A model generated the notes under the pieces. It had not been told where the DNA came from and made no database searches. It was given only the letters and a program-made list of their open reading frames with translations. DNA of 52,218 nt from Candidatus Finniella inopinata (GTDB lineage Bacteria; Pseudomonadota; Alphaproteobacteria; Paracaedibacterales; VGCI01). Positions 32,645-49,608 of the stretch are shown here, piece after piece; the first letter of the stretch is position 1, and each line of letters opens with the position of its first letter. Position numbers and translations under genes: made by a program. The stretch lies in assembly GCA_945877185.1 (NCBI GenBank), contig CAMCRD010000003.1, positions 1 through 52,218 of the forward strand. Direction: 5' to 3'.

Positions 32645-33613
32645 TCAATAAATATTGTTTAAAATAGCCTCAGTAGCAGGCCAGGGAGACAGCTGTGCCT
32701 GTAGAACAGCATCACGCACTATTTTCTCATAATAAGCATGGTATGTTTCCTGTTCTGTCAAAGAAACAATCCCATTTTCACTCAAATGTTTACTCATCAA
32801 GGCTATTGGGCACCGTTCTTGCCATTGTTCGATTTCTTCTTGAGTCCGATAAGTGCGGTGGAGTTCATAATCAAAATAGGGCCCAACATGCTCAAGCCAT
32901 CGATAGGTATCACACTCTAAAAACACTGGGCCGTTCCCTTTTCGGCATTCCTCGACAGCCTTTGAAGCAACAGTATGTACAGCAATCACATCATTACCAT
33001 CAACCTTATAAGATGGTATGCCGAAAGCCTTTACACGATCCACAAATTCTGTTCCTGGTTTTTTTCTAATATCTAACTTCGTTTCTGTAGAATAGAGATT
33101 GTTTTCACAAACAAAAATGACAGGCAGTTTTTGAATTGCTGCATAGTTTAGTGACTCATAAACGATACCTTCATCAAAGGAACCATCTCCAAAAAAAGTA
33201 ACTGCAACATTAGGCTTCTTATCCATTTTAAACGACAATGCGGCTCCCACAGCCACGGGGATCATTTGCCCAAGGATAGCACTGGTTGCAACAACACCTG
33301 CTTGAGAATCTGTTAAATGAACAGAGCCCCCTCTTCCTTGAGAACAGCCTGATTCTCTGCCATAGAGTTCAGCAACAAAGCGATTAAGATCTCCACCTTT
33401 AGCAAGGTAGTGATTATGGCATCTATGATGACTAAAAATGACATCTTCTTGACGAAGAGCTGCACAAACGCCAACTGCTGACGCCTCTTGCCCAATACCA
33501 AAATGCACAGGAGTCCTTATTTCTTGAAGTTTATAGTGATCTGCAAGAATTTGCTCCGCATAACGAATCAAGAGCATCTTTTTAAACAACTCAATCATAA
33601 GATCTTTTTGCAT
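32645..33613 (-). CDS. ThDP-dependent dehydrogenase E1 alpha subunit
   Basis: GQEA, HRCH, GRGGSVH, ThDP motif GDG-x26-NN (FGDGSFDEG...CENN), YRWLEH. Confidence 0.92.
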   Translation of the reverse strand: MQKDLMIELFKKMLLIRYAEQILADHYKLQEIRTPVHFGIGQEASAVGVCAALRQEDVIFSHHRCHNHYLAKGGDLNRFVAELYGRESGCSQGRGGSVHLTDSQAGVVATSAILGQMIPVAVGAALSFKMDKKPNVAVTFFGDGSFDEGIVYESLNYAAIQKLPVIFVCENNLYSTETKLDIRKKPGTEFVDRVKAFGIPSYKVDGNDVIAVHTVASKAVEECRKGNGPVFLECDTYRWLEHVGPYFDYELHRTYRTQEEIEQWQERCPIALMSKHLSENGIVSLTEQETYHAYYEKIVRDAVLQAQLSPWPATEAILNNIY

Positions 33614-33616
33614 GCC

Positions 33617-34276
33617 CTAACTTTCTAAAATCGTCCAATCGTAGTCACCTTTATACCCAGCCTCTTCAAAAACTTCTAACCATTTTTCTGGATAATCATG
33701 AAATTCAGCCGTCAGAACCCATTGCTCAAACATTGCTTTTTGTTCGTGGGTTTCATAAGAATCGACTTGAACAAAGGACTTACCTTTCCCCACACGCTCA
33801 ATTTCTTGAAGGGCTTTAATAACTTGCCCCCTTCCCAGGTTATGGAGCGTATTCATAGACAAAACCAGGTCAAAACTCTTATCGGGAAAAGGCAAACTCA
33901 TCGCATTTCCTAAATGCAACCTACCAATCACATCTGATGAGCAATTTTTTAAAGCATATTCTGAAATATCAAGACCAAAAACCTCAATACCAGGACACAT
34001 GTCCTTTAAATCTTTAACTAAAAATCCTTTGGCGCACCCAATATCAAGGACACGCATACCCGCTTTAAGGGAATAATGATCGATAATGTCTTTTGCAACA
34101 GGGATCCATCGGCCATCGTAAGAATAACCGCCATAACCATGAGATCTTGAACCATCAAAATATGCGTGCCCAAATTTCTTGGACTCAGCAACAACGGCTT
34201 CGTTTTTCTCAGTATGCCTTGCTTTTATATTTCTTTTAGAAGAAGGCAATGATTTTAATAAATGAGTTTGAGGCAT
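33617..34276 (-). CDS. Class I SAM-dependent methyltransferase
   Basis: YFDG.R..GYGGY.YDGRW, VLDIGCAKGFL, LPFPDKSFD, NTLHNL. Confidence 0.88.
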   Translation of the reverse strand: MPQTHLLKSLPSSKRNIKARHTEKNEAVVAESKKFGHAYFDGSRSHGYGGYSYDGRWIPVAKDIIDHYSLKAGMRVLDIGCAKGFLVKDLKDMCPGIEVFGLDISEYALKNCSSDVIGRLHLGNAMSLPFPDKSFDLVLSMNTLHNLGRGQVIKALQEIERVGKGKSFVQVDSYETHEQKAMFEQWVLTAEFHDYPEKWLEVFEEAGYKGDYDWTILES

Positions 34277-34280
34277 ATTT

Positions 34281-35123
34281 TTATGAAATCCAACATTGGA
34301 GAGAATTTTTCACTGTCCATGGCTCAAAACCATACTCTCTTGCTCGATCAAAATTGATCGTGAAGGATTGTTTATCATGATCAATAAGCTTAACTTTTGG
34401 TTGATATTTTAAAAGATTGGCCATGAAGAATATGCACTCTTTAATACTTATTGTTTCTGTGCATCCTAGGTTCACCACATGCGATCCTGCTTTTTGAACT
34501 CCAAGAATATTAACGATATAAGAACAGAGATTCTCTACGTGGATACAATTATTAAAGCCAGAATCTGGGTTATAAATGTCGATTTCTTCATTTTCAAGGA
34601 GTTTTTGGTAGACCTTGGATAGCCAATGTCTTGTGGCCCCTTTCCCAATAATTGCCGGCAATCTCAAGCTAAAAGATACGAAATCATTTGCTGTATCTTT
34701 TAAAAGCATCTCTCCCGCGAGCTTACTGAGGCCGTAGGGGGATGGATTCATTATAGAATGGTCTTCAGTCAAAACGGCTTCATTAACGTCGCCGTAAACA
34801 CTCACGGAAGAAGCATAGATGAAATGACTGACACCAACCTTTTTGGAAAAATTGATAAGAAGCCTCGTTGATTCAGTATTGTTAAGAAAAAGGTTGTTCA
34901 CACTGTAATCTGGCGGCGAAGTAACAGCCGCCAGATGAACAACTGCCTCTATGTCTTTTGGTAAATCTTCATACGTAGAAGAGCACGATAAATCACCAAT
35001 CAACTGATTTTTACTCGTTGAACCAGTCCTGGTAATACCATAAACTTCATACCCATATCCCTGAAGAAGAGGCATTAAGCTCTTTCCTACAAAGGACCGG
35101 GAACCTGTCACTAAAATTTTCAT
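34281..35123 (-). CDS. NAD(P)-dependent NDP-sugar epimerase/reductase (SDR)
   Basis: TGSRSFVG, HLAA, ASSVSVYG, YGLSK. Confidence 0.85.
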   Translation of the reverse strand: MKILVTGSRSFVGKSLMPLLQGYGYEVYGITRTGSTSKNQLIGDLSCSSTYEDLPKDIEAVVHLAAVTSPPDYSVNNLFLNNTESTRLLINFSKKVGVSHFIYASSVSVYGDVNEAVLTEDHSIMNPSPYGLSKLAGEMLLKDTANDFVSFSLRLPAIIGKGATRHWLSKVYQKLLENEEIDIYNPDSGFNNCIHVENLCSYIVNILGVQKAGSHVVNLGCTETISIKECIFFMANLLKYQPKVKLIDHDKQSFTINFDRAREYGFEPWTVKNSLQCWIS

Positions 35124-36001
35124 TTTGCTTCTTGAGTGCCTTTTAACATTCGCTGAATGCCATCATTCAGGTCCATAAAACGAAAATCAGGAAAGGCACG
35201 ATAGAGATTTTCATTATCAAAATACCGATGAGTTATGGCTGAAGAGCGTGGCTTTTGAATGATTGTCACATCTGAATTTAAAGATTTTTGGATACTTTTA
35301 GCAATATCGAAGAAAGAAACTGTGGGCGCAGGACACATATTCAAAGTTCCCGTGCTTTTATGGCGTAAGGCTTTTATTGTTAACTCAACCACATCGTCCA
35401 CAAAAACATGGCTTCTTTTTTCTTCTCCTCCCCCAAATAAAGTGATTGTCTGCTGGTCGAGTGCTTCTCGTAGAAAACGATTTGGTCCATAAGAATTATG
35501 GGTATCACCTGGACCGAAGATGAGCGTTGAACGTAAGATTCCAAGAGGCACAGAGAGCGTTTGAAAGAGTTTTTCGCGCGTCAAATGCATCAGACCGTAT
35601 AAATCTGAAGGACACAAGCATGAATCCTCCCGTAATAATTCCGAGGTCATAGGGAAAATAGCTTCTGAACTAAATAACAAAACATGTCCAACGGGTTTTT
35701 GTTGCAAAGCCTCAAACACATTTCTTGCAAGGGCGATATTATCTTGGAAGGCTTGGATTCCCTGACCTTTATCGGGTGTAATTGCGCTCAAGAAAACGAG
35801 ACTATCATTTTCTTGAAAATGACCTTTCAAAAACTCTACAGCGTGAGCACTCCCCAGGTCACAATCTTTCCGTTCAATCCCTAACATATCTATATTTTTT
35901 GATTGGAGGGATTTGGCCAATCTTTTCCCGACAACACCGCCTGATCCAAGGACAATGACGCGACCAGGGGATTGGGGGTTTTCATAAGCGTGCTTTAACA
36001 T
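35120..36001 (-). CDS. Atypical SDR NDP-sugar reductase/epimerase
   Basis: LGSGGVVG Rossmann motif; YxxxK replaced by YGLMH; HNSYGPNRF. Confidence 0.75.
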   Translation of the reverse strand: MLKHAYENPQSPGRVIVLGSGGVVGKRLAKSLQSKNIDMLGIERKDCDLGSAHAVEFLKGHFQENDSLVFLSAITPDKGQGIQAFQDNIALARNVFEALQQKPVGHVLLFSSEAIFPMTSELLREDSCLCPSDLYGLMHLTREKLFQTLSVPLGILRSTLIFGPGDTHNSYGPNRFLREALDQQTITLFGGGEEKRSHVFVDDVVELTIKALRHKSTGTLNMCPAPTVSFFDIAKSIQKSLNSDVTIIQKPRSSAITHRYFDNENLYRAFPDFRFMDLNDGIQRMLKGTQEAK

Positions 36002-37245
36002 ATCTGTTTTCCTATTTGGTAAATTTTAGAGTCACCATTTTTCTGTTTTATCATTCCATAAGGATCAATAATGTCTCCGGAAAAGGTCTCATAATTTATT
36101 TTAGAAAAATCTGCCCAAGGCGTCATAATGGCTAATAGGGTAGAATTTTTAATAACATCCTCGGCCGTTTTACAAAGATTGACGTGATCGTGGCCTTTTA
36201 AGCTTGCAACGGCAGGATCATAAGCGTACACGGGATGACTCTTGCTCATTGATTTTAAAAACTTAAGGCTTGCGGAATTTTTTAAAGAATGGGTGTTTTC
36301 TTTGTATGTTAAACCTAAAATACCAATTTTTTGATTTGTACTCGACTCACAATGCTGTTTTAAAATACGTAGCCCCCAATTTAAACGATAGGCGCTGTCT
36401 TCCAGCTCTACATCAATGAGTTTCGCAAAGCATCCATGGTTAAAGGCAATTTTTTGAATCGTTGCCAAATCACGCTCCAGATTCCCACCTGCTAAGCCCA
36501 AGCCAGGTTTTAAGTAGGCATAAGGCCCAATCCGTTTATCTAAACGCAAAGTCTCAGCTATATCTTCCCAATCAGCGCCAACATGTTGGCAAATTTCAGC
36601 AAGTGTGTTCGTTGTGGTAATTGTTGAAACTAAATACAAATTAATAGAAATCTTCGCGAGTTCAGCGCTCTCGTAATTCATAACAAAAATAGGACAATTA
36701 AACTTTTTTAAGTAAGTTTCATAGGCTTGTGGAAGTTTCTTGGTCTTCTCACTATTTCCAATAATAAAACGTTCTGGAAATAAGGCTCTTTCCACGGCCT
36801 TTCCAAATATCAACGTCTCAACTTGATAAAACAGCCGCTCTTGAGGAAAAGGGACACTACGTGTAAAGCCAGGAGGAACTTGGCTCAGAATCACTAAAAT
36901 GGCAGAGTCTGATAGATGAGGGAGCATCTCTTCAATCTGCTTACTAATGATACTAAGATCACTCGTTCCTTGATCATCTGTTGGAACGTCAATGGCCAAA
37001 TAGACAAGCTCACATTGGCTAATATCCGTCAAATTGCTTGTAAAAGTAAGATGAGCTTTATTTTTATCTAGCAACCTTAAAAGATCCGGTTCTTGAATGC
37101 TTAAAGTTTCTGGTTTACCCTTCTCGAAAAGATGCTCTTGCGCATAACAAACAACTTTAAAGTCACCTCCACATTTTTCAGCCGCAGAAATAGCCGATAC
37201 ATAAGAAAGGTGAGAAGCACCCACAAAACCAACGGTAAAAGTCAT
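35995..37245 (-). CDS. UDP-glucose/GDP-mannose dehydrogenase-family protein lacking the catalytic Cys
   Basis: DVPTD, SQVPPGFT, ESAELAKISIN, D.RIG, GLTYKENT. GGNLERD replaces GGxCxxKD. Confidence 0.8.
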   Translation of the reverse strand: MTFTVGFVGASHLSYVSAISAAEKCGGDFKVVCYAQEHLFEKGKPETLSIQEPDLLRLLDKNKAHLTFTSNLTDISQCELVYLAIDVPTDDQGTSDLSIISKQIEEMLPHLSDSAILVILSQVPPGFTRSVPFPQERLFYQVETLIFGKAVERALFPERFIIGNSEKTKKLPQAYETYLKKFNCPIFVMNYESAELAKISINLYLVSTITTTNTLAEICQHVGADWEDIAETLRLDKRIGPYAYLKPGLGLAGGNLERDLATIQKIAFNHGCFAKLIDVELEDSAYRLNWGLRILKQHCESSTNQKIGILGLTYKENTHSLKNSASLKFLKSMSKSHPVYAYDPAVASLKGHDHVNLCKTAEDVIKNSTLLAIMTPWADFSKINYETFSGDIIDPYGMIKQKNGDSKIYQIGKQIC

Positions 37246-38145
37246 CTAAAAATTCCTTGAAATCCACGCATCGTTATCAATATTGGTTCCATGACCTTGG
37301 AAGCATAAATTTACAAAATGCTGATATTCTAATTCCCAGGTTGGGTCTAACTGGGTCAAGGTTACGGAGTCTTCGCTTGGTCGACCACTGGGCAAAATTC
37401 GTTTCCGGGTCGTGAACGTACTCGGGCCCCATTTGCATAATGAATCAATATGCGCTGATCCATTTTCCCCATAAATATCGCACGTAAAGTGATTGCGCCA
37501 GCTCAGGAGAGTCATTTCTAACTGAGCGTAGGGCGTTCCCTCAGAATGAATAACAACATGGTCAGGCGCTTTGTTTTCAAAATTATTTGTCGCAATTTTC
37601 TTAAAAACCCTTTGCGAATCGTCAAACCAAAACAAAAATGTATCTAAAAGATGGGATCCTAAGTCTTGGATAACGCCTAAATCTTTATCTCGCCAAGGCG
37701 AATTCCGCACATCCCGCGCTGTACCATTTCCATAAAACATCCGACAGGTATAAATTTTTCCAAGCTCGCCACTCTTTATATAATCCTTCATGCGAATAAA
37801 ATGTGGTTCGAATCGATGATTATAAGCCGTGTAGCAGACGGCAGAATTTGATAGATTTTTAATATCGCTTACCTCTTGTTGATTGAAAATAATAGGTTTT
37901 TCAACAAGAACATGTTTTTTATTGACCAGGAGGTATTTTAAAATACGAAACTTCTCTTGATCTGGCACACAAACGAGTGCTGCATCATAGTCTTCTAACG
38001 GTACTGACTCTATAGATTGATAATGAGCTTCGGGAAAAATCGGGTCTACAATCGCCTGGCAGCCATCTGGTAAAAGCTTAAAACGCTTCTTTCCTTGGAT
38101 CCCAAAGCCGACAATAACAACTCGTAGTTTAGATGATTGAGTCAT
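37246..38145 (-). CDS. Gfo/Idh/MocA oxidoreductase
   Basis: GFGIQG, KHVLVEKP, YNHRFEP, YGNGT, DLGSHLLD. Confidence 0.88.
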   Translation of the reverse strand: MTQSSKLRVVIVGFGIQGKKRFKLLPDGCQAIVDPIFPEAHYQSIESVPLEDYDAALVCVPDQEKFRILKYLLVNKKHVLVEKPIIFNQQEVSDIKNLSNSAVCYTAYNHRFEPHFIRMKDYIKSGELGKIYTCRMFYGNGTARDVRNSPWRDKDLGVIQDLGSHLLDTFLFWFDDSQRVFKKIATNNFENKAPDHVVIHSEGTPYAQLEMTLLSWRNHFTCDIYGENGSAHIDSLCKWGPSTFTTRKRILPSGRPSEDSVTLTQLDPTWELEYQHFVNLCFQGHGTNIDNDAWISRNF

Positions 38146-38177
38146 GGCTATTTAGGAAATTCAAACATTTTTACAAA

Positions 38178-38762
38178 TTACCATTTCGTTGCGTTTTTTT
38201 GTAAAATGGGATGGCTGACTAAACAATGCCAAACAACAGCTTGAAAAGCCTCTGTGTGAGGCGTGACGCGGTCTGCATGCACCGTTGGAATAACAACAAC
38301 ACAATCCCCTTTTTCTTTTGTGTAACCCCCATCGCGGCCGACAATTCCAAAGATCTTCAACCCTCTTACTTTGGCCTCATCAATGGCCTTAACAAGATTG
38401 ACACTGACCTTCTTTTCTGAATTGCCTCCCCCAACTGAGAGTATCAAAAGCGCATCATTTTCCTTAGCCTGGCTCACCATAAGCCATTGTGAAAAAACGG
38501 TTTCCCACCCTTCATCATTGGTTCGAGCCGTTAATTCAGAGACATTATCCGTTGGTGCGTAAGCTTCAATGCCACAAAGTTTACGGAAATCATTAACGGC
38601 ATGGCTGCAGTTGGCAGCACTGCCTCCAACACCGAGAATGAAGAGGCGACCTTTACTCTCACGCATTTCGTACAATGAGAGAGCAAGTTTTTCAACTCCT
38701 TCATCACTTAACGCATTAGCAATTTCACTAACTTCTTTCATAAAGAGCTTGGAATGAGTCAT
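38178..38762 (-). CDS. gmhA: SIS-domain phosphosugar isomerase (GmhA-like, divergent)
   Basis: GVGGSAANCSH, TARTND, LSVGGGNS, GRDGG, PHTE...VWH. Confidence 0.82.
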   Translation of the reverse strand: MTHSKLFMKEVSEIANALSDEGVEKLALSLYEMRESKGRLFILGVGGSAANCSHAVNDFRKLCGIEAYAPTDNVSELTARTNDEGWETVFSQWLMVSQAKENDALLILSVGGGNSEKKVSVNLVKAIDEAKVRGLKIFGIVGRDGGYTKEKGDCVVVIPTVHADRVTPHTEAFQAVVWHCLVSHPILQKNATKW

Positions 38763-39949
38763 GACCGCACCTCTTGAGAACCGCCTATAGCTGAAATATT
38801 TTCTAGTTGTCTAAAATGCATCTTGAAAGACCAATTTTCACTTTTACTTCTTTTGATAACATTGTTGACTGTCTGCGTAACAAGAGGGACGTAGACAACA
38901 GAATCTTTGGGAACCTGAAAGGGATGATAGATTGGCACTCCCAAATGTTGGCTTCCTTTTTTGGTAGAATCTTCATCAACAAAGAAACAGACTGACCCTT
39001 TATTTTTGAGTGATCCATATAACCAGGTAGAGGATATGGAGCTGCCAAATATGCCAAATGATTGATCAAGCGAATAATTGTTGGCGTCAGAAATCATATT
39101 CGTTAGATAATCGACGTTAGAAAGAAGTTTATGATAAATAGCATCAATATTATGCTCTCTTGATTTTACGATTGGTTTGTCTAATGGTCTGGCAATCAAT
39201 GATATTTCTTTAAATACCCACTCTCTAGTAAATTCAACAATTTCATACCCAGCAAGTTCAAGAAGGTACGAAAGTGTCTCTGGGTAAAAGTGTGTTACAT
39301 GATCTGCCACCAAAATATCAAAAGGATTTTTATCATTATCCGGAACTTGGATAAAGAGTACCCCACCGGGCTTAATCAGTTTTTTAATTTCACTCAAAAA
39401 GCTTAATGGATCTGGGATGTGCTCCAAAACGTGTTGAACAGAAACAACATCAAATTTTTCTGTTACATCTTCTAATTGACCCGAATAAAAATGAGAGAAA
39501 TTTTCAAGAGAACTAAAGACATTCAGTTTTCTCTCATTGATATCGTAAGCGTTTAAATTTATGGTTTCATTTTCTTTGCTGACAGCCCTTAAAAAAGCCC
39601 CATTCCCAGCGCCGATATCCAACAAATCCTTTTTCATATAAGGAGAAAGCTTTTTTGCAATCAAAGCTGCTCGATCAGCCTCTCCCGTCTCTTGAAATAC
39701 AACCTGGCTGCTTATGGAAGAGGAAGCATATAAATCATAAGAATGATAGATAGAGGCAGACTCTTCTAAAAATTTTTCATCTACTGCTTTTTGAAGCGTT
39801 GCGCATTTTTTGCATAAATGCAAAGCCCCCCCTTTACCAAAGGGCTTTGCATCTGAAGTTACCCTTGGCAACTCAGAATATCCAGGGATAGGAATAAGCG
39901 AACTATTCCTACAAACAAGACAGTTATCTTGTTCTATTGGCAGATTCAT
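38759..39949 (-). CDS. SAM-dependent methyltransferase with N-terminal Cys4 zinc site (NDP-sugar C-methyltransferase-like architecture)
   Basis: CLVC...CKKC, LLDIGAGNG, HVLEHIPDP, C-terminal Rossmann-like GIFG...FVDED. Confidence 0.8.
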   Translation of the reverse strand: MNLPIEQDNCLVCRNSSLIPIPGYSELPRVTSDAKPFGKGGALHLCKKCATLQKAVDEKFLEESASIYHSYDLYASSSISSQVVFQETGEADRAALIAKKLSPYMKKDLLDIGAGNGAFLRAVSKENETINLNAYDINERKLNVFSSLENFSHFYSGQLEDVTEKFDVVSVQHVLEHIPDPLSFLSEIKKLIKPGGVLFIQVPDNDKNPFDILVADHVTHFYPETLSYLLELAGYEIVEFTREWVFKEISLIARPLDKPIVKSREHNIDAIYHKLLSNVDYLTNMISDANNYSLDQSFGIFGSSISSTWLYGSLKNKGSVCFFVDEDSTKKGSQHLGVPIYHPFQVPKDSVVYVPLVTQTVNNVIKRSKSENWSFKMHFRQLENISAIGGSQEVRS

Positions 39950-40742
39950 ATTTTTTACCTATCTCATTTGCGGGCGAACTACTAAAAAACTCATAATAAG
40001 GCTTACCTCTCACAACTCTTCCGAAATCAATAGGAGCAGAAGCACTAACCAAGCGTATGTCCGTTGAAAATCTTGTTTTCTGGCTGGCATTAATGACTTG
40101 ACCATGGACTGTTGATAAAGAAAACATCAGAACTTGGCTAGGCTCAACACATACCTCTATCAACCCAGTATAGAGCTCCTTATCTAAAAACAAAGGCTCA
40201 TAAGCAAACCCGACCAAGTGCTTTTCTGATCCTTTTTCTATTTCTGAACTTCCCCTTTCATAGGGAATTTCAGATTCTGAAGCAATGTGTGACCCGGGTA
40301 TCACTTGTAGGGCACTCCCCTCCCTCATGGGAGTTAATGGAATTGAAACGGAAACTTCATAGGCAGAAGCGCCATACCATGTGTCTCTATGGTACCCAAT
40401 GTTATCTGAATCAATCCCAGGCCTAGATATTCTAAAATGAGGTTGCGTTTGGATGTACAAATCTTCACCCAGCAAATGACGAAACACATCGATATTATCT
40501 TGAATAATCGCTTTTTGAAGCCCTAATTCCCAAAATTTGGTCGTCAACTCTACTTGTATTGACGTATGGAGCTCCTCATTAAGCGGTAGATTATGGTAAT
40601 CTTCGAGAGAAGCTACTTCTAACCCCCTCTTTTTCAAGCAAAAAAAACAGAAATCAATAGCCTTGTCTAGAGAAGATCTATTATATAAATCAGCGACAAC
40701 GTAGCCATTTTCTTTAAAGGAAGTTATATCTGTAAATGCCAT
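39924..40742 (-). CDS. Fe(II)/2-oxoglutarate dioxygenase, PhyH family
   Basis: HxD in GYHRDTWY, LQVIPGSH, distal His in TVHG, R.S in RFSTD. Confidence 0.82.
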   Translation of the reverse strand: MAFTDITSFKENGYVVADLYNRSSLDKAIDFCFFCLKKRGLEVASLEDYHNLPLNEELHTSIQVELTTKFWELGLQKAIIQDNIDVFRHLLGEDLYIQTQPHFRISRPGIDSDNIGYHRDTWYGASAYEVSVSIPLTPMREGSALQVIPGSHIASESEIPYERGSSEIEKGSEKHLVGFAYEPLFLDKELYTGLIEVCVEPSQVLMFSLSTVHGQVINASQKTRFSTDIRLVSASAPIDFGRVVRGKPYYEFFSSSPANEIGKKYESANRTR

Positions 40743-40792
40743 AAAATACCCGTCTCAAAAAAATCAATAAAACAAAATATTACAACAGATTA

Positions 40793-41950
40793 TTAAGTTA
40801 AATTAGAAATTAAATCTATGTATATTTTCGTTTCATCTTGGCGGTTATGTTTTAATATATTCGCCAAAGAATCAAGGTCGTACTCTTTCAAAAGAGCTTC
40901 AATAGGAGTTATATCCATATTCTGGATGGATTTTACATTCTCCAAAAAACCAGAAAATTTTTCTTTTAAAAACAAATCAATATTCATTTTTTCCTTAGAT
41001 ATAGCCGCTTCATCCACATGAGAATTATACATACTTTTCATCATATTTCTTCCAGAAATTTGATGAAATTTTGGTAAATAAATGTTCTTTTCACTCTTAT
41101 ATACATCCAGAAGTTTAGAAAGAAGATGAGAATATCTTGTCTCTTTTTTAGATGTAAAATTATTTGTTTTTATATATTCTAACATGTTTATGCATAAGCC
41201 CATTTTTTTATGAATTAAGGCAAAAAGAGCATATTGATACATTTTATCAATATCATTATGATGAATAAGTGAATTGAAGTTTTTAATATAGACAAAATCA
41301 GCATACATAATTTGCTCTTCTGCCCTAAAACCTATAGGCAATGAAATCGGAGAAGCTCTGCCTATTGAATTTACATCTATTAACTCAAAACCCATACTAT
41401 TCAAAAGACGGTCTATCTCTGAGAATACACGTTGATTTTTATACAGTTCGATAAATTCAATTTCCAGCTGTATCCCTACAACACTCTGCGCAATAACATC
41501 TTTAGAACCCAGTAAAATGTCATATTCTGCTCCTTGAACATCTAATGACAAAAAATCTATGGGCAAGGATTTTTTTTTTAAAAGTTCTGATAAGGAAAAT
41601 GTTTCAATAAATACGCTCTCTTCTGATTTTAAACTATCTCCATATATAAACTCCCCATACTTAGGATATGTAACAGAAGAGAAGTTTTTATATTCTTCAT
41701 TAAAACGATAGAGAGAACTACCTGCTGGATGATACGTGATATAAAACTCTGCAGACCCCTTTTCCTTGCCTATACAATAAGGGAGAACCATAGTTTCCCC
41801 AAAATTCTCATACTTATTCTCTTGCATATGCTCTAAACAATCACGATCCGCATCATATAAAATCAAATGGAAATCTTTTAAAAGATTCCCTTTCTTTAGC
41901 GGAAAAGGAAAAGTGCCATTACGCCCTCCAATATGGTGGTAATGTATCAT
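40793..41950 (-). CDS. FkbM-family methyltransferase
   Basis: IGGRNG, SSLY, IDFLSLDVQGAEYDIL.G, LYKNQ..F..ID. Confidence 0.85.
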   Translation of the reverse strand: MIHYHHIGGRNGTFPFPLKKGNLLKDFHLILYDADRDCLEHMQENKYENFGETMVLPYCIGKEKGSAEFYITYHPAGSSLYRFNEEYKNFSSVTYPKYGEFIYGDSLKSEESVFIETFSLSELLKKKSLPIDFLSLDVQGAEYDILLGSKDVIAQSVVGIQLEIEFIELYKNQRVFSEIDRLLNSMGFELIDVNSIGRASPISLPIGFRAEEQIMYADFVYIKNFNSLIHHNDIDKMYQYALFALIHKKMGLCINMLEYIKTNNFTSKKETRYSHLLSKLLDVYKSEKNIYLPKFHQISGRNMMKSMYNSHVDEAAISKEKMNIDLFLKEKFSGFLENVKSIQNMDITPIEALLKEYDLDSLANILKHNRQDETKIYIDLISNLT

Positions 41951-41966
41951 TTTATTTTTTATCCTT

Positions 41967-43544
41967 TTAACTAACCATTCTTATGGCATCTTTATGACTA
42001 GACCAAGAGTGAGCTAATTCCAGTCGATCAATCTTATCCATAACTTCTTTTTGGGTGACCGGAATATTTCCCAAATGCTCACATTCAATAGCCGCAGCAA
42101 GAGAACCCAGAACACCTGCAATCACTTCATTACCTGTTACAATGTGAGCCAGAGTTGCATAGGCCAACAGAGCATCCCCTGCACCCACAGCGTCTAGGAC
42201 TTTATCGCTAAAGCTATCAACGATGAAGAAGGACCGCAGATCTGAATCCACATCTAAGCGATTGCGATAAACCAAAATACCTCGTTCACCAAGTTTCAAG
42301 ATCAAATTTTTACATTCGGCTTGTTTAAATAAATGGAGGGCGAGGGGGCGAACTACCGAATCCTGGTCTCCAAGAGAAAACCTTGCCTCTCGTTCATTGG
42401 GTGTAATCAGGTCGAAATCTTTAAAATCAAGAATGTTTCCCCACCGACTGGCGACCTGACTGTCAGCAACTTTGAAAGCATGGGAAGGAATGCTCTCGAT
42501 TAAGCTAGGAATTGTTGCTGCTGAGAAAATTCCATGTCGGAAATCACTAAAAATAACGCAATCCGTTGGTTCTGCTTCGAGTTGTTTTTTAAGGGCTTTG
42601 CATATTTTATCTGAAATGACCCGATTATCAAGGGTGTCCAATTTCAAGAGTCGATGAGCTTCGCAAATGATCGCATTCTTGTTTGTGGTTGGCCTTGACT
42701 CATCAATGATGGGCAGAACCTTAACGCCAAAATTGACCAAATCATTGAGGACAAAGTCTTTCCAAGCATCGTTTCCGAGAACCGTTGAAAAAGTGACATC
42801 CGCGCCTGCCGCTTTAAGATGCTTTGCAACAATTCCTGCCCCACCAACATAGTTTTCTTGAGTATCATGCCGGACAGACAAGGTTGGTGTCTTTGTTTGT
42901 CCACCGATCATTGTAGTGTATGTATACGTATCCACAATGGTGTCTCCAACAACATGAACGCGAATACCCTTAAATTTGTCAAAAGCTCCCCGCATGTCTT
43001 CTAAAGTAAGGCCCTCTCCGTCTAAAAGAGATTGGAGTTTTTCTTGGGATAGATTAGGTGGTGAATTCTCAATAATTGCAGAAGACGAATAGACGACATC
43101 ACCTGGGGTAAATAAAATCTCTCCCCCATAGGCATTAATAACGTCAAGCTCTTCTTGTGTTTTGGGATTCATGCTGCCGGAGACATACTCATATCCCTTG
43201 GCAAAGTAATCAGGCTGTAATTCAGACAAGGTTTTCAGGGGTTTTTCGTCAGGGTCAACATAAACGAAATCCACCATTTCTAAGGCAGCTAGGTTTAATG
43301 CGCGAAGGTCTTCTGAAATAAACGGGCGCACATTTGCTTTTTTGATATGGGCATCGCAGGTGATGCTCGCAATAAGGATATCCGCCGCGTGTTTTGCATA
43401 CATCAAGTGTCGAATGTGGCCAGGGTGAACAATATCAAATGTCCCATGGCACATGATAACTTTCTTATCCCGTGGAAAGGGGCCTATTATTTTTTTGATT
43501 TCGTCGAGGCTTTTAATTTTTGATCTATATTTAATGTCAATCAT
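41967..43544 (-). CDS. Bifunctional nucleotidyltransferase plus PfkB kinase (HldE/RfaE-like, reversed domain order)
   Basis: N-terminal HGTFDIVHPGH (HxGH), KG.EY, SSS. C-terminal GDTIVD, TPNEREAR, DAVGAGD. Confidence 0.88.
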   Translation of the reverse strand: MIDIKYRSKIKSLDEIKKIIGPFPRDKKVIMCHGTFDIVHPGHIRHLMYAKHAADILIASITCDAHIKKANVRPFISEDLRALNLAALEMVDFVYVDPDEKPLKTLSELQPDYFAKGYEYVSGSMNPKTQEELDVINAYGGEILFTPGDVVYSSSAIIENSPPNLSQEKLQSLLDGEGLTLEDMRGAFDKFKGIRVHVVGDTIVDTYTYTTMIGGQTKTPTLSVRHDTQENYVGGAGIVAKHLKAAGADVTFSTVLGNDAWKDFVLNDLVNFGVKVLPIIDESRPTTNKNAIICEAHRLLKLDTLDNRVISDKICKALKKQLEAEPTDCVIFSDFRHGIFSAATIPSLIESIPSHAFKVADSQVASRWGNILDFKDFDLITPNEREARFSLGDQDSVVRPLALHLFKQAECKNLILKLGERGILVYRNRLDVDSDLRSFFIVDSFSDKVLDAVGAGDALLAYATLAHIVTGNEVIAGVLGSLAAAIECEHLGNIPVTQKEVMDKIDRLELAHSWSSHKDAIRMVS

Positions 43545-44538
43545 GATTTGTTTGCTCTAAATTATTAAACCATATCGCTGTTGCGTCTTTGATAGACTCA
43601 GGCGTCCAAAGAGGCGCATTCTGCCAATACTCTATTTCGTCTAGAATCAGCTGAACACCCTCTTCAAAGGTAATTTCTGGCGACCATCCTAAATCTTTTT
43701 GAATCTTTGAAATATCCGCCCAAGTGCAATCTGGCTCTCCCGGGCGTTTTGGAATATACACCGTGTCTCCTTGAAGGAGCTCGACTAATTTATTTACAGA
43801 CTGAGGACTTCCAGCGCCCAAATTGTAAATCTCTCCTACTTTGGGCGTTTCTGCAGCTGCATAAAAGGCTCTGGCTACATCTGTTACATATAAAAAGTCC
43901 CGTTTTTGGGTTCCGTCTCCCACAATCGTAAATGGATGACCTGCCAACTTTTGCTTTAAAAATACGCCAAAAACAGCACCATAAGCTCCCGATGTCCGGG
44001 ATCGTGTGCCATAAGCATTAAAAATTCGAATAACATTCACAGGGAGTTTATAAACTTGCTGCCAATGAAAACAGGCTTGCTCTCCCTGGTATTTACTTAA
44101 AGCATAAGGATATTGCGGTTGAATAGGGTGATCTTCTTTTGTTGGTGTGCTCGCCAGTCCATAACAAGACGAAGAAGCGGCATAAACAAACTTCTTAATA
44201 CCAGCCACCCTTGCGGCTTCGAGAATTTTCACGGTGCCTTGAACATTTACATCCATATAATCAGATGGCTTTTCAATGGAGGGGACGATATCACCAATAC
44301 CTGCAAAGTGGAAAACGTACGAAGCCCCCTTAAATAAAGGATGATGAGGTGAAATTGACCTAATATCAGCCTCTTCAAAAACGAGGTCTGGGTTGGAATG
44401 ATGATGGCTTAAATTTTGCAGCCTTCCCCCATATAAATTATCAACAACATGGACTCGAAATCCTTGCTCAATCAAGAGATCAACAGTATGGCTCCCTATA
44501 AATCCAGCCCCACCGGTGACAACAGCAATTTCTTTCAT
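43537..44538 (-). CDS. NAD-dependent NDP-sugar epimerase/dehydratase (SDR)
   Basis: TGGAGFIG, AASSSCYG, YALSK, FNAYG, GDGTQKRDF. Confidence 0.9.
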   Translation of the reverse strand: MKEIAVVTGGAGFIGSHTVDLLIEQGFRVHVVDNLYGGRLQNLSHHHSNPDLVFEEADIRSISPHHPLFKGASYVFHFAGIGDIVPSIEKPSDYMDVNVQGTVKILEAARVAGIKKFVYAASSSCYGLASTPTKEDHPIQPQYPYALSKYQGEQACFHWQQVYKLPVNVIRIFNAYGTRSRTSGAYGAVFGVFLKQKLAGHPFTIVGDGTQKRDFLYVTDVARAFYAAAETPKVGEIYNLGAGSPQSVNKLVELLQGDTVYIPKRPGEPDCTWADISKIQKDLGWSPEITFEEGVQLILDEIEYWQNAPLWTPESIKDATAIWFNNLEQTNHD

Positions 44539-44541
44539 AAC

Positions 44542-45552
44542 TTAGGCAGCTTTTGTGGTTTTAAGATTGCGGACATTGATATATTCAGGATTATTCATGG
44601 AATCAACAAATTTGTTTTCTTTAAAAGCACGACAAATATCCCTCACCGCATCCTCAATAGTATGAAGCGGGGAAAATCCCAAAATATCCTTAATCTTATC
44701 GGAGTTAATGTGATAGGAGCGAAGATCATTGCTGGCCACTGTTTCAATATCAATCTGAGAATTTTCTGGAAACTCATTTTCAACAACATCGCGGACAATT
44801 TCGGCCAACTGGGATATTGATTGATTTTGATAGCCAATATTGAAAGTCTGACCTTGGATTTTTTCCCTTGGTGCTTGAAGCATCAGTTTGTAAACGTTAC
44901 ACATATCCTGTATGTGAAGATTTGGGCGAAGCTGAGACCCCCCAAAAACAGAAATTTTACGATTGTTAACCGCATGATTTGTTAGAATGTTAACAGATAG
45001 GTCAAACCGCATACGTGGGCTGTATCCGCAAATGGTGGCGGGTCTAATTGTAACGCAAGTAAAACTATCATCTTGATATTTAAAGAGAAGCGGCTCACAC
45101 ATCCCTTTGTACTTATTATATAATGTGAGAGGAACAAGGGGGTGTTCTTCCGTAACGTCTGGAGCTTCTGAAACCCCATAGACTGAACTGCTTGAACAAT
45201 ATACAAACCGCTTAACCCCTGATTCTTTTGCAGTTTTTACGAGATCCTCGAAACAATCATAGTTAATACTTTTGCTAAGCCCTTCATCCAGCTCAAAACT
45301 GGGATCATTTGAAATGCAGGCTAGATGAAGAACAACGTCAACTCCTTCACAAGCTTTTTTAAAGGCAGCATTATTTCGAATATCTTCTTTGATGACCGTC
45401 AACTTTTGATGGGGCTTTAAATAACACCCAAAATATTGGGTATCATAAACAATGATATCATTTCCCTGTTCTAATAACTGAGGGATCAATAATGTCCCAA
45501 CGTAACCCGCACCACCTGTGACCAATACTGTTTGCATCTTCATATCCCTCAT
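44542..45552 (-). CDS. NAD-dependent NDP-sugar epimerase/dehydratase (SDR)
   Basis: TGGAGYVG, HLACISNDP, SSSSVYG, YNKYK, RFDLSVN. Confidence 0.9.
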   Translation of the reverse strand: MRDMKMQTVLVTGGAGYVGTLLIPQLLEQGNDIIVYDTQYFGCYLKPHQKLTVIKEDIRNNAAFKKACEGVDVVLHLACISNDPSFELDEGLSKSINYDCFEDLVKTAKESGVKRFVYCSSSSVYGVSEAPDVTEEHPLVPLTLYNKYKGMCEPLLFKYQDDSFTCVTIRPATICGYSPRMRFDLSVNILTNHAVNNRKISVFGGSQLRPNLHIQDMCNVYKLMLQAPREKIQGQTFNIGYQNQSISQLAEIVRDVVENEFPENSQIDIETVASNDLRSYHINSDKIKDILGFSPLHTIEDAVRDICRAFKENKFVDSMNNPEYINVRNLKTTKAA

Positions 45553-46265
45553 GCCGCTATTTTAAATCCAGCTTCTTTCGCATCATTATAAAACATTTGA
45601 ACAGTTTCTAGGCTGTATTCCGTCAAGTCCTTCCCTAAAAGGTTAAGCTTACCTAAGATATCTGATGTGGCTGTGATAATGTCACAACCCACGCTATCTG
45701 CTTGAATAACATTGAGAACTTCACGAGGGCTTGCCCATAATAACTCCAGTTTCGATTGATGGCGCATCATATCTTTAGCCTCTTTCATTAAGGGAGCCGG
45801 ATCAACGCCCGTATCAGCGATACGACCCGCAAATATAGAGATAATTGCTGGAATACCCTCGTTCAAAGCACCCATAATTTCTTGCACTTGACCGATCGTA
45901 AATACAGCCGTTACATTCAGCTTTACGCCCTTAGCCGACAATTCTTTGATCACAAGCGACGTTGATTCGCCACTTGTGTTTGTGACGGGAATTTTTATGT
46001 AGATATTTTCTCCCCAAGAATCGATTTCCAAAGCTTGGTCAACCATACCCTGATGATCATCAGCAAACACTTCGAATGAAATCGGCTTACCACGAATAAC
46101 TCTTAAGCAGTCTAGAGCGAATCTTTTATAATCAGCTGTTCCGGCTTTTCTTATTAAGGTAGGATTTGTTGTCAAACCTTGGATCCAATCGTACGATGCC
46201 ATTTTTTCTATGACAGAAAGGTCAGCCCCATCCGCATAAAGCTTAATTTTTAAATCATTTTTCAT
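45549..46265 (-). CDS. Short (FSA/TalC-type) transaldolase dedicated to the glycan locus
   Basis: YADGA, TTNPT, SFEVF, Schiff-base Lys in YIKIP, NVTAVF, SIFAGRIAD, LWASPRE. Confidence 0.9.
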   Translation of the reverse strand: MKNDLKIKLYADGADLSVIEKMASYDWIQGLTTNPTLIRKAGTADYKRFALDCLRVIRGKPISFEVFADDHQGMVDQALEIDSWGENIYIKIPVTNTSGESTSLVIKELSAKGVKLNVTAVFTIGQVQEIMGALNEGIPAIISIFAGRIADTGVDPAPLMKEAKDMMRHQSKLELLWASPREVLNVIQADSVGCDIITATSDILGKLNLLGKDLTEYSLETVQMFYNDAKEAGFKIAA

Positions 46266-46801
46266 GCCTTTTTCAAACCTTCTTGTTCAATGATATAATC
46301 TTTTGCTTGTGTTAATGTGTTGCAAATATAATCAGGGTTAAAAATCATTTTTTCGGTGTAATTTCTATCGAGCAGAATGGTTTTATAGCATCCTGCATTA
46401 ATTCCCGCCCCAATATCACGCCAACGATCACCAATCATATAGCTTTTCTTCAATTTTATGCCAAACTCTTCTGCAGCCTTTAAGAGCATCCCAGGATTCG
46501 GTTTATAATCTGAACTACCTTCGTCTATGCATATTCTTATGCTGTCTAAGGGTAAATTATCTATAAGTTTTTGGTGCATAGCCTCAACAACTTCTACTAG
46601 TTGAGTGTCGCGAGATATATCTGGTTGATTTGTAACGACAATTAGTTTAAAGCCCCCTCGTTTAAACTCGTTGAGCGCCCCATGGGCATCTTCATAGATT
46701 TTGAATTCTTCTAATGTTTGAGGCGGGAAAGGTTTACCTGCCCGTATCATAGGATAGTTCAATACGCCATCCCTGTCTAAAAATATGGCTTTATTTATAA
46801 T
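46262..46801 (-). CDS. gmhB: HAD-IIIA sugar-bisphosphate phosphatase (GmhB-like)
   Basis: The frame extends upstream of the ORF-track TTG to IINKAIFLDRDGVLN (HAD motif I); also VTNQPD, KPNPGM, IGDRWRDI. An in-frame TAA lies at 46802-46804, so the start is uncertain. Confidence 0.85.
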   Translation of the reverse strand: MINKAIFLDRDGVLNYPMIRAGKPFPPQTLEEFKIYEDAHGALNEFKRGGFKLIVVTNQPDISRDTQLVEVVEAMHQKLIDNLPLDSIRICIDEGSSDYKPNPGMLLKAAEEFGIKLKKSYMIGDRWRDIGAGINAGCYKTILLDRNYTEKMIFNPDYICNTLTQAKDYIIEQEGLKKA

Positions 46802-46960: not shown

Positions 46961-47557
46961 TCATTTTACATCCCCCTCGCCAAAGGAACTTCTTGAAATA
47001 TGCAACAAATACAAGGTGAGAAGCCGATTTGGGTCAACTTTCTCTTTAATAGAATCATAGGTGCCTTGAGGGTTCATCACATCTGTAACCAAAATTGCAT
47101 CATAGGCCTTTAAGTCTGCGTCTTCACTGACAAAAGAAACGTCCAGACCATTTCCGTGGGCGACAAGTTGAGCAATGTCGGCAAGGTCCCCGGCGCCAAC
47201 AAGGCCAATTTTTTGCCATCCTTTATGCTGACATTCCTCAAAAAGAACTTCGCATTGGGTTCTCGCATCACGGAAAAAAGTTAAGGAGCGCGCTAAATAA
47301 TCTTTCACCATATGGCTTTTTTCTTTAAACCCTTCTGGGGTTAGAAAATAGGTAATGCGGCGGGGAGAAATTTGGGTAGCGCGAATCCAGCCCTTTGTTA
47401 CACAGCTTTTTAGATATTGATTCATGAGCCCCAAAGCAATCCCAAGCTCAGAAGCTAAGCCACGCTGAGTAAATGAGGGATTGCCTTCAATTTCCGTTAA
47501 GAGATGAACCATCACCTTTTGTTCTGTTTGCTGCCGAGTATCTTGGAAAGCTGCCAT
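46961..47557 (-). CDS. MarR-family EPS-associated winged-helix regulator (TIGR04176-like) with C-terminal Rossmann-like domain
   Basis: TQRGLASELGIALGLMN.YLK, KGW, YFLTPEGF.EK; C-terminal GLVGAGDLA. Confidence 0.88.
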   Translation of the reverse strand: MAAFQDTRQQTEQKVMVHLLTEIEGNPSFTQRGLASELGIALGLMNQYLKSCVTKGWIRATQISPRRITYFLTPEGFKEKSHMVKDYLARSLTFFRDARTQCEVLFEECQHKGWQKIGLVGAGDLADIAQLVAHGNGLDVSFVSEDADLKAYDAILVTDVMNPQGTYDSIKEKVDPNRLLTLYLLHISRSSFGEGDVK

Positions 47558-48912: not shown

Positions 48913-49608
48913 ATGCAAAAAAACCATCTCCTGTTGATCCTCCTCGGCGTCCTTGGGGCTTTGTTGCTTGGATACCTCCTCTGGCGGTTTCCCCATGTTC
49001 TTGAATCAGACGATAATCTTGCTTATTTTATCCGCTCCCTTCTGCTTCTTGGCTTCCTGGTTCCTTCCGTATTCCTTCATCGTCATGCGCCTCAAGCCCT
49101 CAAATACGGAGCTTGTTGGGTCGGTATCTTCCTGATTTTGTTCGTCGGATATAGTTATCACGAGGATTTGGGCCATGTATGGGATCGGCTGAAAGGCAAC
49201 CTTCTTCCTTTCTCAGGGACACAAAATGCCGATGGATCTATAACTTTTGTTCGCGCAGAAGGGGAACATTTTTTGATTGAAGCCTTGGTGAACGATGTGC
49301 CGATACAGTTTATGGTTGATACGGGCGCCACACGCGTGGCCTTAACGCTCCAAGATGCCAAACGGTTAGGGTTTGATGTGGAAAATTTATCCTACCGTGA
49401 GCTCATTCATACGGTGAATGGCGATACCTTTGCGGCTCCTGTATACCTTGCGGAGGTTAAGGTAGGGTCCATTGTTGTGAAGGATCTCGGCGCTACCGTG
49501 AATAAGAACCTGTCTGGCCATTCCTTGTTGGGCATGAATTTTTTGAAGAAGCTAAAAGGCTTTAAGATTGAGGGGAACCGCCTAACCTTCGAGGTACCTC
49601 AGTTTTAA
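48913..49608 (+). CDS. Clan AA (retropepsin-like) aspartic protease, TIGR02281-like
   Basis: 3 N-terminal TM helices, FMVDTGAT catalytic motif, SLLGMNFL. Confidence 0.9.
   Translation: MQKNHLLLILLGVLGALLLGYLLWRFPHVLESDDNLAYFIRSLLLLGFLVPSVFLHRHAPQALKYGACWVGIFLILFVGYSYHEDLGHVWDRLKGNLLPFSGTQNADGSITFVRAEGEHFLIEALVNDVPIQFMVDTGATRVALTLQDAKRLGFDVENLSYRELIHTVNGDTFAAPVYLAEVKVGSIVVKDLGATVNKNLSGHSLLGMNFLKKLKGFKIEGNRLTFEVPQF

Follow-up and report, generated by a model that had tools for sequence, protein, structure and literature searches.

A transaldolase-bearing sugar-nucleotide cassette in a surface-glycan locus of Candidatus Finniella inopinata, a probable source of a higher-carbon sugar

The stretch of Candidatus Finniella inopinata DNA analyzed here, 52,218 nucleotides long and hereafter called the window (assembly GCA_945877185.1, contig CAMCRD010000003.1, positions 1 to 52,218), carries between positions 29522 and 46801 a block of sugar-nucleotide genes whose product is probably a nucleotide-activated higher-carbon sugar, of eight carbons or a similarly long chain, for a surface glycan. 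The best explanation of this block is that it represents a lineage-specific, decorated copy of a widespread and horizontally mobile cassette. The core of the cassette comprises a transaldolase, a GmhA-like isomerase of the SIS family, a GmhB-like phosphatase of the HAD family, a fused nucleotidyltransferase/sugar kinase, several short-chain dehydrogenases/reductases (SDRs), a methyltransferase, and a pair formed by a Gfo/Idh/MocA oxidoreductase and a UDP-glucose dehydrogenase (UGD) homologue devoid of the catalytic cysteine. The window makes up contig C3 of an assembly of 112 contigs (1.85 Mb, about 91% completeness), and outside the block it is occupied by a large surface-glycan locus.

Gene families were assigned with Pfam and NCBIfam profile searches (Table 1). 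Between 29522 and 47557 every open reading frame (ORF) is on the minus strand, and neighbors either overlap or are separated by 3 to 50 bases, except for gaps of about 145 to 160 bases at both ends. This tight packing fits one transcript and hence a single operon-like block at 29522-46801, while a promoter and terminator scan of the block gave no more sites than shuffled sequence. The MarR-type regulator directly upstream was placed outside the conserved cassette because a relative was found in only 3 of the 80 related loci described below. A first-pass annotation, made from the letters of the window, had described the interval 35995-46801 as an octose assembly line of the lincosamide type. 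The gene families that it named are all present there, all on the minus strand; the list was incomplete, since three inner genes (an FkbM methyltransferase, a 2-oxoglutarate (2OG)-Fe(II) oxygenase and a class I methyltransferase) and seven downstream genes reaching to 29522 had been left out. Within 29522-46801 no aminotransferase was found, the nearest DegT-family genes (22730-23806 and 3932-5098) lying in the nonulosonic-acid part of the locus, and no glycosyltransferase was recognized.

These genes occur together far more often than chance would allow: the same partners, in an unchanged order, recur in the majority of 80 loci of other species. In a scan of one genome per species, relatives of the fused enzyme were found in at least 574 stretches, thus in at least 574 species genomes from many phyla, and the best 80 were kept as loci, in which partners were searched by tblastn with the window proteins at a coverage of at least 50%. 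The groups represented among the best 80 include Alpha-, Beta- and Gammaproteobacteria, “Deltaproteobacteria”, Myxococcota, Acidobacteriota, Verrucomicrobiota, Planctomycetes, Rokuibacteriota, Methylomirabilota and the SAR202 cluster, with isolates of Azospirillum, Skermanella, Tardiphaga, Bradyrhizobium and Sulfidibacter. The partners, with the number of loci in which each occurs, were the Gfo/Idh/MocA protein (75), the SDRs starting at 44542 and 43537 (75 and 74), the UGD homologue (74), the RmlD-like SDR (64), the transaldolase (62), the methyltransferase starting at 33617 (59), the phosphatase (58) and the isomerase (55). The pyruvate-dehydrogenase E1 beta and alpha homologues were found in 24 and 20 loci, and the three inserted genes (starting at 40793, 39924 and 38759) in 1 to 4. 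In the 50 loci flanked on either side by 6 kb or more, the SDR starting at 43537, the Gfo/Idh/MocA protein and the UGD homologue were each present in 48, the SDR starting at 44542 in 46, the RmlD-like SDR in 44, the methyltransferase in 42, the transaldolase in 41, the phosphatase in 40 and the isomerase in 38, and all nine partners occurred together in 24. The E1 homologues are optional (12 of these 50 loci for alpha, 11 for beta), and a single locus (L035) had the fused enzyme without any partner. The genes usually run isomerase, phosphatase, transaldolase, SDR, SDR, fused enzyme, Gfo/Idh/MocA protein, UGD homologue, SDR and methyltransferase, over about 9.5 kb, with the Gfo/Idh/MocA gene almost always directly upstream of the UGD-like gene. 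That some cassettes do without a transaldolase was considered and rejected, since all five genomes examined among the transaldolase-less loci encode a 53-57% identical copy elsewhere, in four cases (L008, L017, L031, L036) a little beyond the retrieved part of the same contig. The closest named locus (L003), from a metagenome-assembled genome labelled Candidatus Finniella sp., has a fused enzyme 95% identical to that of the window and the same extra genes. A plasmid search with the fused enzyme gave no match at E 1e-50.

Two further arrangements, referred to as variants B and C, were found in a sample of 401 Pseudomonadota genomes, the present one (G000) included. In this sample, fused-enzyme orthologues (57-60% identical) occur in five other genomes (G400, G167, G139, G075, G055) and transaldolases at least 53% identical in five (G028, G400, G348, G159, G280); the genomes with only one of the two genes mostly hold variant B, variant C or lone copies. 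Variant B, in the four genomes with the fused enzyme only, consists of isomerase, fused enzyme, SDR, Gfo/Idh/MocA protein and UGD homologue, without the two epimerases; in one of its loci (L095) the cassette encloses a distinct PF00923 transaldolase (30% identical) together with a HAD phosphatase. Variant C, in G028 (locus L097), is composed of methyltransferase, SDR, UGD homologue, adh_short SDR, Gfo/Idh/MocA protein, GHMP kinase, NTP_transferase, isomerase, HAD phosphatase, transaldolase and a GDP-mannose-dehydratase homologue, and the same set is present on a Rhizobium jaguaris replicon (L103). A comparable set is annotated in RefSeq on a Lawsonia intracellularis plasmid (SIS, HAD-IIIA, transaldolase, nucleotide sugar dehydrogenase, SDR, Gfo/Idh/MocA, galactokinase, nucleotidyltransferase). 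In G159 the isomerase, phosphatase and transaldolase stand at a contig end, and the copies of G348 and G280 are lone ones. Hence, one set of genes, composed of the transaldolase-isomerase-phosphatase trio and the pair of Gfo/Idh/MocA protein and UGD homologue, occurs with two different activation systems. Across the three cassette variants a transaldolase almost constantly accompanies the isomerase and phosphatase, which agrees with the earlier proposal of a transaldolase dedicated to the pathway.

Several features of these variant loci were recorded besides. An IS66-family transposase lies 3.4 kb (L097, 5025-6620) or about 0.9 kb (L103, 13589-15241) from the transaldolase end of variant C, and its presence in two unrelated records hints at how the cassette moves. 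The variant B locus L095 is flanked by two radical SAM genes (165-1877 and 8148-9248), one with a SPASM domain, which suggests another kind of tailoring. In L101 (G077:C4, about 9737-10435), a 45% identical transaldolase is contained in a 955-residue open frame, possibly a fusion protein.

In the UGD family, the role of the catalytic cysteine is known, and it is the basis on which a loss of function can be predicted for the cassette homologue. The cysteine of the GGSCFPKD motif (Sphingomonas, 4a7p) aligns with an asparagine in the window protein, and asparagine occupies this position in all 74 cassette UGD homologues. Therefore, a two-fold oxidation to a uronic acid is unlikely. The N-terminal motif reads GFAGMTHLG in place of GxGxxG, its histidine being present in 73 of the 74, so that the protein lacks both features by which UDP-glucose/GDP-mannose 6-dehydrogenases are recognized, i.e., the cysteine in GGxCxxKD and the N-terminal GxGxxG. 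The variant C homologue, 28% identical to that of the window, reads GGTLLRD; among the matches listed for it in a protein search, all 120 relatives have GGTLxRD, with threonine at the cysteine position, and His-Leu-Gly near the N-terminus, none has the cysteine motif, and the names attached to them are absent or generic. An ESM Atlas search with the UGD homologue likewise returned only generic “nucleotide sugar dehydrogenase” clusters. As a separate observation, two Atlas clusters near it by features (ranks 14 and 22) are mostly viral (Uroviricota) proteins of that name.

In lincosamide biosynthesis, 6,8-dehydration is carried out by LmbL, of the UGD family, together with LmbZ, of the Gfo/Idh/MocA family. 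The pair in the window had been likened to these proteins, and its adjacency, its conservation and the loss of the cysteine in 74 of 74 homologues fit this comparison, while its activity is assigned by analogy. It is thus plausible that the two cassette proteins act jointly in a role like that of LmbL/LmbZ. A complex prediction for the two proteins, run without controls, gave a score of 0.00 and was not used for any reading.

The canonical heptose genes are encoded elsewhere in the genome. A GmhA-like gene on contig C5 scores 190 bits, just under the model cut-off of 209, a canonical HldE on contig C56 scores 361 bits against a cut-off of 345, where the cassette fused enzyme reaches about 134-136, and a transketolase scores 839 bits against 682. 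Given the transketolase, sedoheptulose 7-phosphate would be on hand without a private transaldolase. Taken together, these three genes indicate that the block is a second sugar-nucleotide pathway, distinct from the heptose route of the lipopolysaccharide (LPS) core, as had been supposed at first. This is also illustrated by the cassette enzymes themselves. Isomerase, fused enzyme and phosphatase all score far below the equivalog cut-offs of the ADP-heptose pathway, and the fused enzyme has the HldE domains in reverse order, with its HPGH and GAGD motifs invariant in an alignment of 22 sequences. The isomerase is 26.5% identical to the canonical GmhA of the same genome and carries in its phosphate-binding loop a five-residue insertion that is conserved in 55 cassette sequences. 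Concerning the phosphatase, the ORF as listed begins at TTG 46762, and a short way upstream, in the same frame and following a stop, comes the DRDGV nucleophile motif; the likely start is therefore ATT 46801, the same end coordinate as in the first-pass annotation. An FLDRDG-type motif is found near the N-terminus in 56 of 57 phosphatase orthologues from other loci, the exception being a 122-residue fragment in L067. It was also observed that no ATG, GTG or TTG precedes the essential DRDGV motif within 46762-46801, which implies an ATT or ATA start.

The cassette apparently corresponds to the block cbu0674-cbu0683 of Coxiella burnetii, the “virenose region”, to judge from published annotation, gene order and residue numbers. 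The gene order printed for that block is the cassette order, although no transaldolase or HAD phosphatase gene is mentioned between cbu0674 and cbu0676 in the accounts searched, and the window copy differs from it by additional tailoring genes. The published accounts relate CBU0678 by homology to the bifunctional heptose kinase/adenylyltransferase and describe “an unconventional, reversed domain arrangement”; it is mutated in every phase II strain sequenced and indispensable for phase I LPS, with no function assigned (PMC5843353). A 2026 review and a 2026 preprint still describe its role as unclear, associating it with virenose production and with a gain from Alphaproteobacteria (PMC13552124, PMC13252051). 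In the same region, CBU0674 is annotated as a phosphoheptose isomerase and CBU0676 and CBU0677 as SDR epimerases (PMC5843353), CBU0681 is weakly RmlB-like (PMC3539893), CBU0683 is a methyltransferase proposed for virenose synthesis (PMC13252051), and CBU_0673, 0676 and 0678-0682 were probably gained in one event (PMC5423948). Residues P74 and G369, whose replacement in a Coxiella passage variant (P74A and G369R) impaired CBU0678 (PMC5843353), are invariant with the same numbers in our 22-sequence alignment, and the predicted active-site residue D455 (PMC5843353) corresponds to D457 of the window enzyme, in the GAGD motif. The word “transaldolase” was not found in the main texts of the Coxiella literature searched; the products of cbu0673-cbu0683, with any transaldolase among them, may be listed in supplementary material (PMC5843353, S2 Table; PMC5423948). 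The block had been put forward as an undescribed system. This is half right: by published annotation the homologous Coxiella block was already known genetically, through CBU0678 and phase I LPS, though not chemically.

It can be proposed, with confidence about evenly divided, that the transaldolase provides octulose 8-phosphate, that this is converted to a nucleoside-diphosphate (NDP)-octose, and that the octose then undergoes epimerization, side-chain dehydration and reduction, and methylation, the sugar being in this genome also C-branched, methylated and hydroxylated. Each substrate and product along this route is deduced from family membership and analogy. The transaldolase would move a dihydroxyacetone unit to an acceptor aldose phosphate that is not erythrose 4-phosphate but most likely ribose 5-phosphate, and so yield octulose 8-phosphate. 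The divergent GmhA-like isomerase would then convert the ketose phosphate to an aldose phosphate, the PfkB domain would phosphorylate C1, and the HAD phosphatase would strip the terminal phosphate of the resulting sugar bisphosphate. The cytidylyltransferase-like domain may next form an NDP-sugar, ADP- or CDP-linked and beta-configured by analogy with HldE. Two epimerase-type SDRs could invert centers; the one at 43537-44538 is the most conserved cassette partner, with a median identity of 71%, and to judge from its motifs presumably has no dehydratase-type acidic pair after the Ser motif. The NAD-binding Gfo/Idh/MocA enzyme and the cysteine-less UGD homologue would oxidize and dehydrate the side chain in the manner of LmbL/LmbZ, after which the RmlD-like SDR would reduce the keto group and the small methyltransferase methylate the product. 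The extra genes of this genome would account for a thiamine-dependent two-carbon branch (E1 alpha/beta), further methyl groups and one hydroxylation. With respect to the branch, a separate E1 alpha/beta pair, 35-39% identical to that of the block, is encoded on contig C27; the pair in the block is therefore an extra one in addition to a housekeeping pair.

The foremost alternative, though an unlikely one, is a modified heptose. Sedoheptulose 7-phosphate would be isomerized, made into ADP- or CDP-heptose by the reversed HldE, then epimerized, oxidized or deoxygenated, and methylated, the transaldolase serving as a supply or housekeeping enzyme. Indeed, because of the HldE-like kinase and nucleotidyltransferase, an ADP-heptose derivative is a natural alternative product, and with the GmhA-like and GmhB-like proteins these domains make up the exact family set of the ADP-heptose pathway. 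A whole group of observations weighs, like this one, against an octose. To begin with, the transaldolase looks ordinary. It scores above the cut-off of TIGR02134, the plain “transaldolase” equivalog of NCBI, and its Asp, Glu, Lys (Schiff base) and Phe, which we take to be the catalytic set of true transaldolases, line up with those of the Thermoplasma enzyme 3s0c (1vpx was also aligned), with Phe and not the Tyr of fructose-6-phosphate aldolase. Transaldolases about 50% identical to it are found in sugar-catabolic contexts, beside LacI and phosphotransferase-system genes on lactobacillus plasmids and beside an arabinonolactone oxidase and HxpB on a Streptomyces plasmid; another, in Treponema, stands alone. 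A tree of 93 sequences was built with FastTree (LG+gamma, Shimodaira-Hasegawa-like supports), rooted on the 30% identical copy of L095 and including 12 of the 120 protein matches listed, chosen by hand and with Staphylococcus aureus matches left out. In this tree, the Streptomyces catabolic copy is the sister of the group of the window and L003 (support 0.846), the lactobacillus and Treponema copies form a small separate group, and G348 and G280, whose copies stand alone, fall within the cassette transaldolases. The idea that cassette transaldolases make up a clade of their own, apart from ordinary ones, was thus not upheld, since the Streptomyces copy falls inside, and by the criterion set in the first-pass annotation, grouping with housekeeping enzymes, this speaks against a specialized transaldolase. 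The argument for a special precursor rests on gene linkage and not on the sequence of the transaldolase.

The genomic inventory bears on the same question. The only other transaldolase gene of the genome, of the Fsa/TalC type (C41:141-491, minus strand; L002), has a stop after 116 residues and lies 140 bases from the contig start; it is likely a pseudogene or the result of an assembly break, so that the cassette transaldolase, the only intact one, may be the sole working copy. Likewise, each of the four variant B genomes has one PF00923 gene, the cassette-linked copy, which could therefore double as housekeeping transaldolase. In the 401 genomes, a fused-enzyme orthologue and a TIGR02134-type transaldolase coincide only in G000 and G400. 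The Coxiella LPS sugars named in the sources searched are virenose, dihydrohydroxystreptose, mannose, heptose and Kdo, with no mention of an octose there, and the Coxiella authors treat CBU0678 as a heptose enzyme (PMC6759588). Against a modified heptose stand the GmhA-like gene, HldE and transketolase already encoded in the genome, the distance of the cassette enzymes from the heptose equivalogs and the remodelled phosphate loop of the isomerase. In addition, all three variants retain a transaldolase together with the isomerase and phosphatase, and so do large genomes with a second transaldolase-family gene (3 of 5 examined). The characterized heptose clusters (Campylobacter, Burkholderia, Yersinia, septacidin) are not known to carry a transaldolase.

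The correspondence with Coxiella brings in another candidate, a branched or methylated 6-deoxyhexose such as virenose, for which the early enzymes would form an alternative route from a hexulose phosphate to a hexose 1-phosphate. This is improbable. It would agree with the abolition of phase I LPS upon loss of CBU0678 and with the reviews that link this protein to virenose (PMC5843353, PMC13552124, PMC13252051), as well as with the presence of a conserved methyltransferase in the cassette and with the role proposed for CBU0683 in the same Coxiella block. However, the loss of virenose in the mutant could merely follow from truncation of the O-antigen, and the published virenose route starts at GDP-mannose and uses enzymes outside the cassette (PMC13252051). 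Furthermore, no GDP-mannose dehydratase lies beside the block in the window, the conserved methyltransferase fits general class I models and not sugar C-methyltransferase families, and a dedicated transaldolase would have no clear role in a hexose route. Finally, a product used outside LPS or capsule, for glycosylation of a protein such as flagellin or in a small secreted glycoside, is highly improbable: the lack of a recognized glycosyltransferase in the block and the very different neighborhoods of the cassette (radical SAM genes in L095, IS66 in L097 and L103) would suit it, but the block is surrounded by nonulosonic-acid genes, glycosyltransferases, WbqC-like genes and an ABC exporter, and the corresponding Coxiella gene is reported to affect LPS length.

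If the octose proposal holds, a ten-gene cassette present in hundreds of species from many phyla would embody a class of sugar-nucleotide pathway so far known from one antibiotic family. It would also provide a concrete biochemical hypothesis for the Coxiella burnetii block, whose one studied member, CBU0678, is required for full-length LPS, and the cysteine-less UGD homologue with its Gfo/Idh/MocA partner would become a recognizable two-protein module for side-chain dehydration. A broader view, which we hold only tentatively and with less than even confidence, is that neutral octoses derived from a transaldolase product and activated as nucleotide sugars are a widespread and overlooked component of bacterial surface glycans, that the lincosamide octose route was drawn from the GHMP-kinase variant, and that the Coxiella block including CBU0678 makes such a sugar or a derivative of it and not a heptose. 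Relative to the literature searched, the breadth of the cassette, its variants, the cysteine-less dehydrogenase homologue, the constant transaldolase and the lincosamide parallel are new. Harmless cultured carriers (Sulfidibacter corallicola M133 and Skermanella aerolata KACC 11604, both with the complete cassette, Azospirillum cavernae, and Rhizobium jaguaris CCGE525) are open to direct analysis. Should the product be a modified heptose instead, the annotation would still be useful in setting the reversed-HldE cassette apart from the heptose pathway of the LPS core.

The remainder of the window shows what surrounds the block. A nonulosonic-acid (legionaminic/pseudaminic-like) gene set extends over 3932-26259 on the minus strand and includes NeuB, DegT aminotransferases, a PglD-like acetyltransferase, a CBS-NTP_transferase, a UDP-GlcNAc 2-epimerase and a CMP-type cytidylyltransferase. 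It also holds two HisH/HisF-like pairs and an NAD-synthase-like protein, which suggest an amidino-type decoration. One or more WbqC-like genes and glycosyltransferases are part of the same locus. Six ORFs of 346-509 residues had no Pfam match (9158-10687, 12057-13142, 14853-16142, 16800-18092, 26282-27583 and 30490-31530, minus strand), four of them even at E 0.01; these are candidate polymerases, flippases or glycosyltransferases of unrecognized families. Beyond the regulator, a protein with a retropepsin-like aspartyl protease domain (48913-49608, plus strand; PF13975, 85.6 bits) lies between the glycan locus and a patatin-like phospholipase (50477-51559, minus strand), which scores 185.7 with the model for cyclic-GMP-AMP (cGAMP)-activated phospholipases of cyclic-oligonucleotide-based antiphage signaling systems (CBASS), just below the cut-off of 200, and is adjoined by a phage-lysozyme-family ORF (50019-50456); the window ends at 52218.

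Table 1. Genes of the block, its upstream regulator and two genes of the adjoining glycan locus (scores in bits, followed by model cut-offs where given; locus counts refer to the 80 related loci).
Feature	Coordinates	Strand	Profile matches and remarks
MarR-family regulator, exopolysaccharide (EPS)-associated type	46961-47557	-	TIGR04176 62.5, cut-off 88; directly upstream of block
GmhB-like HAD-IIIA phosphatase	46262-46801	-	NF006506 76, cut-off 178
Transaldolase, TIGR02134 type	45549-46265	-	TIGR02134 331, cut-off 282; PF00923
Extended SDR, epimerase-like	44542-45552	-	PF01370 131; SSSVYG ... YNKYK
Extended SDR, epimerase-like	43537-44538	-	PF01370 202
Fused nucleotidyltransferase (N-terminal) and PfkB sugar kinase (C-terminal)	41967-43544	-	PF01467 residues 32-159; PF00294 residues 196-494
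FkbM-family methyltransferase	40793-41950	-	PF05050 52.6; relative in 1/80 loci; lineage-specific insert
2OG-Fe(II) oxygenase, PhyH-like	39924-40742	-	PF05721 32; TIGR04324 72.7, cut-off 150; 3/80 loci; lineage-specific insert
Class I S-adenosylmethionine (SAM) methyltransferase	38759-39949	-	PF13489 72.7; 4/80 loci; lineage-specific insert
GmhA-like SIS isomerase, distinct subfamily	38178-38762	-	gmhA model 64, cut-off 209
Gfo/Idh/MocA oxidoreductase	37246-38145	-	PF22725, PF01408; intact GxGxxG
UDP-glucose/GDP-mannose-dehydrogenase homologue	35995-37245	-	three UDPG_MGDP_dh domains; TIGR03026 183.6, cut-off 189.8
RmlD/GDP-fucose-synthase-like SDR	35120-36001	-	weak NCBIfam matches
Additional SDR, GalE-like	34281-35123	-	70; reciprocal best matches in only 12 loci; outside conserved core
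Small class I methyltransferase, conserved cassette member	33617-34276	-	NF045667 45.6, cut-off 155; median identity 56%
Pyruvate-dehydrogenase E1 alpha homologue	32645-33613	-	TIGR03182 299, cut-off 394
Pyruvate-dehydrogenase E1 beta homologue	31563-32648	-	NF006667 300, cut-off 321
346-residue ORF	30490-31530	-	no family found; no relative in 80 loci
Second FkbM methyltransferase, last gene of block	29522-30484	-	TIGR01444 54.9; no relative in 80 loci
ABC exporter	27580-29376		in glycan locus
Canonical UDP-sugar dehydrogenase	24871-26259		GLGFVG and GGYCLTKD present

Three known systems can be compared with the cassette. In the lincomycin pathway, LmbP is a kinase of the GHMP type and LmbO a nucleotidyltransferase of the NTP_transferase type; in avilamycin biosynthesis, AviB1/AviB2 are E1-like. 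Published work showed that the lincomycin octose nucleotide is made by LmbR (a transaldolase), LmbN (an isomerase), LmbK (a phosphatase) and LmbO, and that its further conversion involves LmbM, LmbL, CcbZ and CcbS (PMC4351081, PMC12945683). By family and role, the cassette shares with the lincomycin/celesticetin pathway the transaldolase, GmhA-like isomerase, kinase, HAD phosphatase, nucleotidyltransferase, SDR epimerase and the pair of UGD-family and Gfo/Idh/MocA proteins. The closer match by family is variant C, with its GHMP kinase and NTP_transferase. In the window, by contrast, a single fused protein combines a PfkB kinase with a cytidylyltransferase-like domain, so that the equivalence to LmbP and LmbO drawn in the first-pass annotation gives way to an HldE-type fusion. 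The window block further differs in having two or more extra SDRs and a methyltransferase, in having no aminotransferase (LmbS), carrier-protein domain or peptide-coupling gene, and in its setting, a Gram-negative surface-glycan locus and not an antibiotic cluster. No description of a transaldolase-dependent octose in a polysaccharide cluster was found in the main texts of the literature searched. With the canonical ADP-heptose pathway (GmhA/HldE/GmhB), the cassette has in common the four families for isomerization, 1-phosphorylation, terminal dephosphorylation and nucleotidyl transfer. In contrast to it, the bifunctional enzyme is domain-reversed, the scores over cut-offs are 64/209 (isomerase), 134/345 (rfaE domain I of the fused enzyme), 89/181.5 (rfaE domain II) and 76/178 (phosphatase), and a transaldolase, a Gfo/Idh/MocA protein and a cysteine-less UGD homologue are added. 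As for avilamycin, the AviB1/AviB2 complex was proposed to add the C-4 acetyl branch from pyruvate (PMC4753412). The E1 alpha/beta pair of the window is alike by family and likewise lies within a sugar-nucleotide cluster, besides a housekeeping pair, whereas in the cassette at large it is only an optional add-on.

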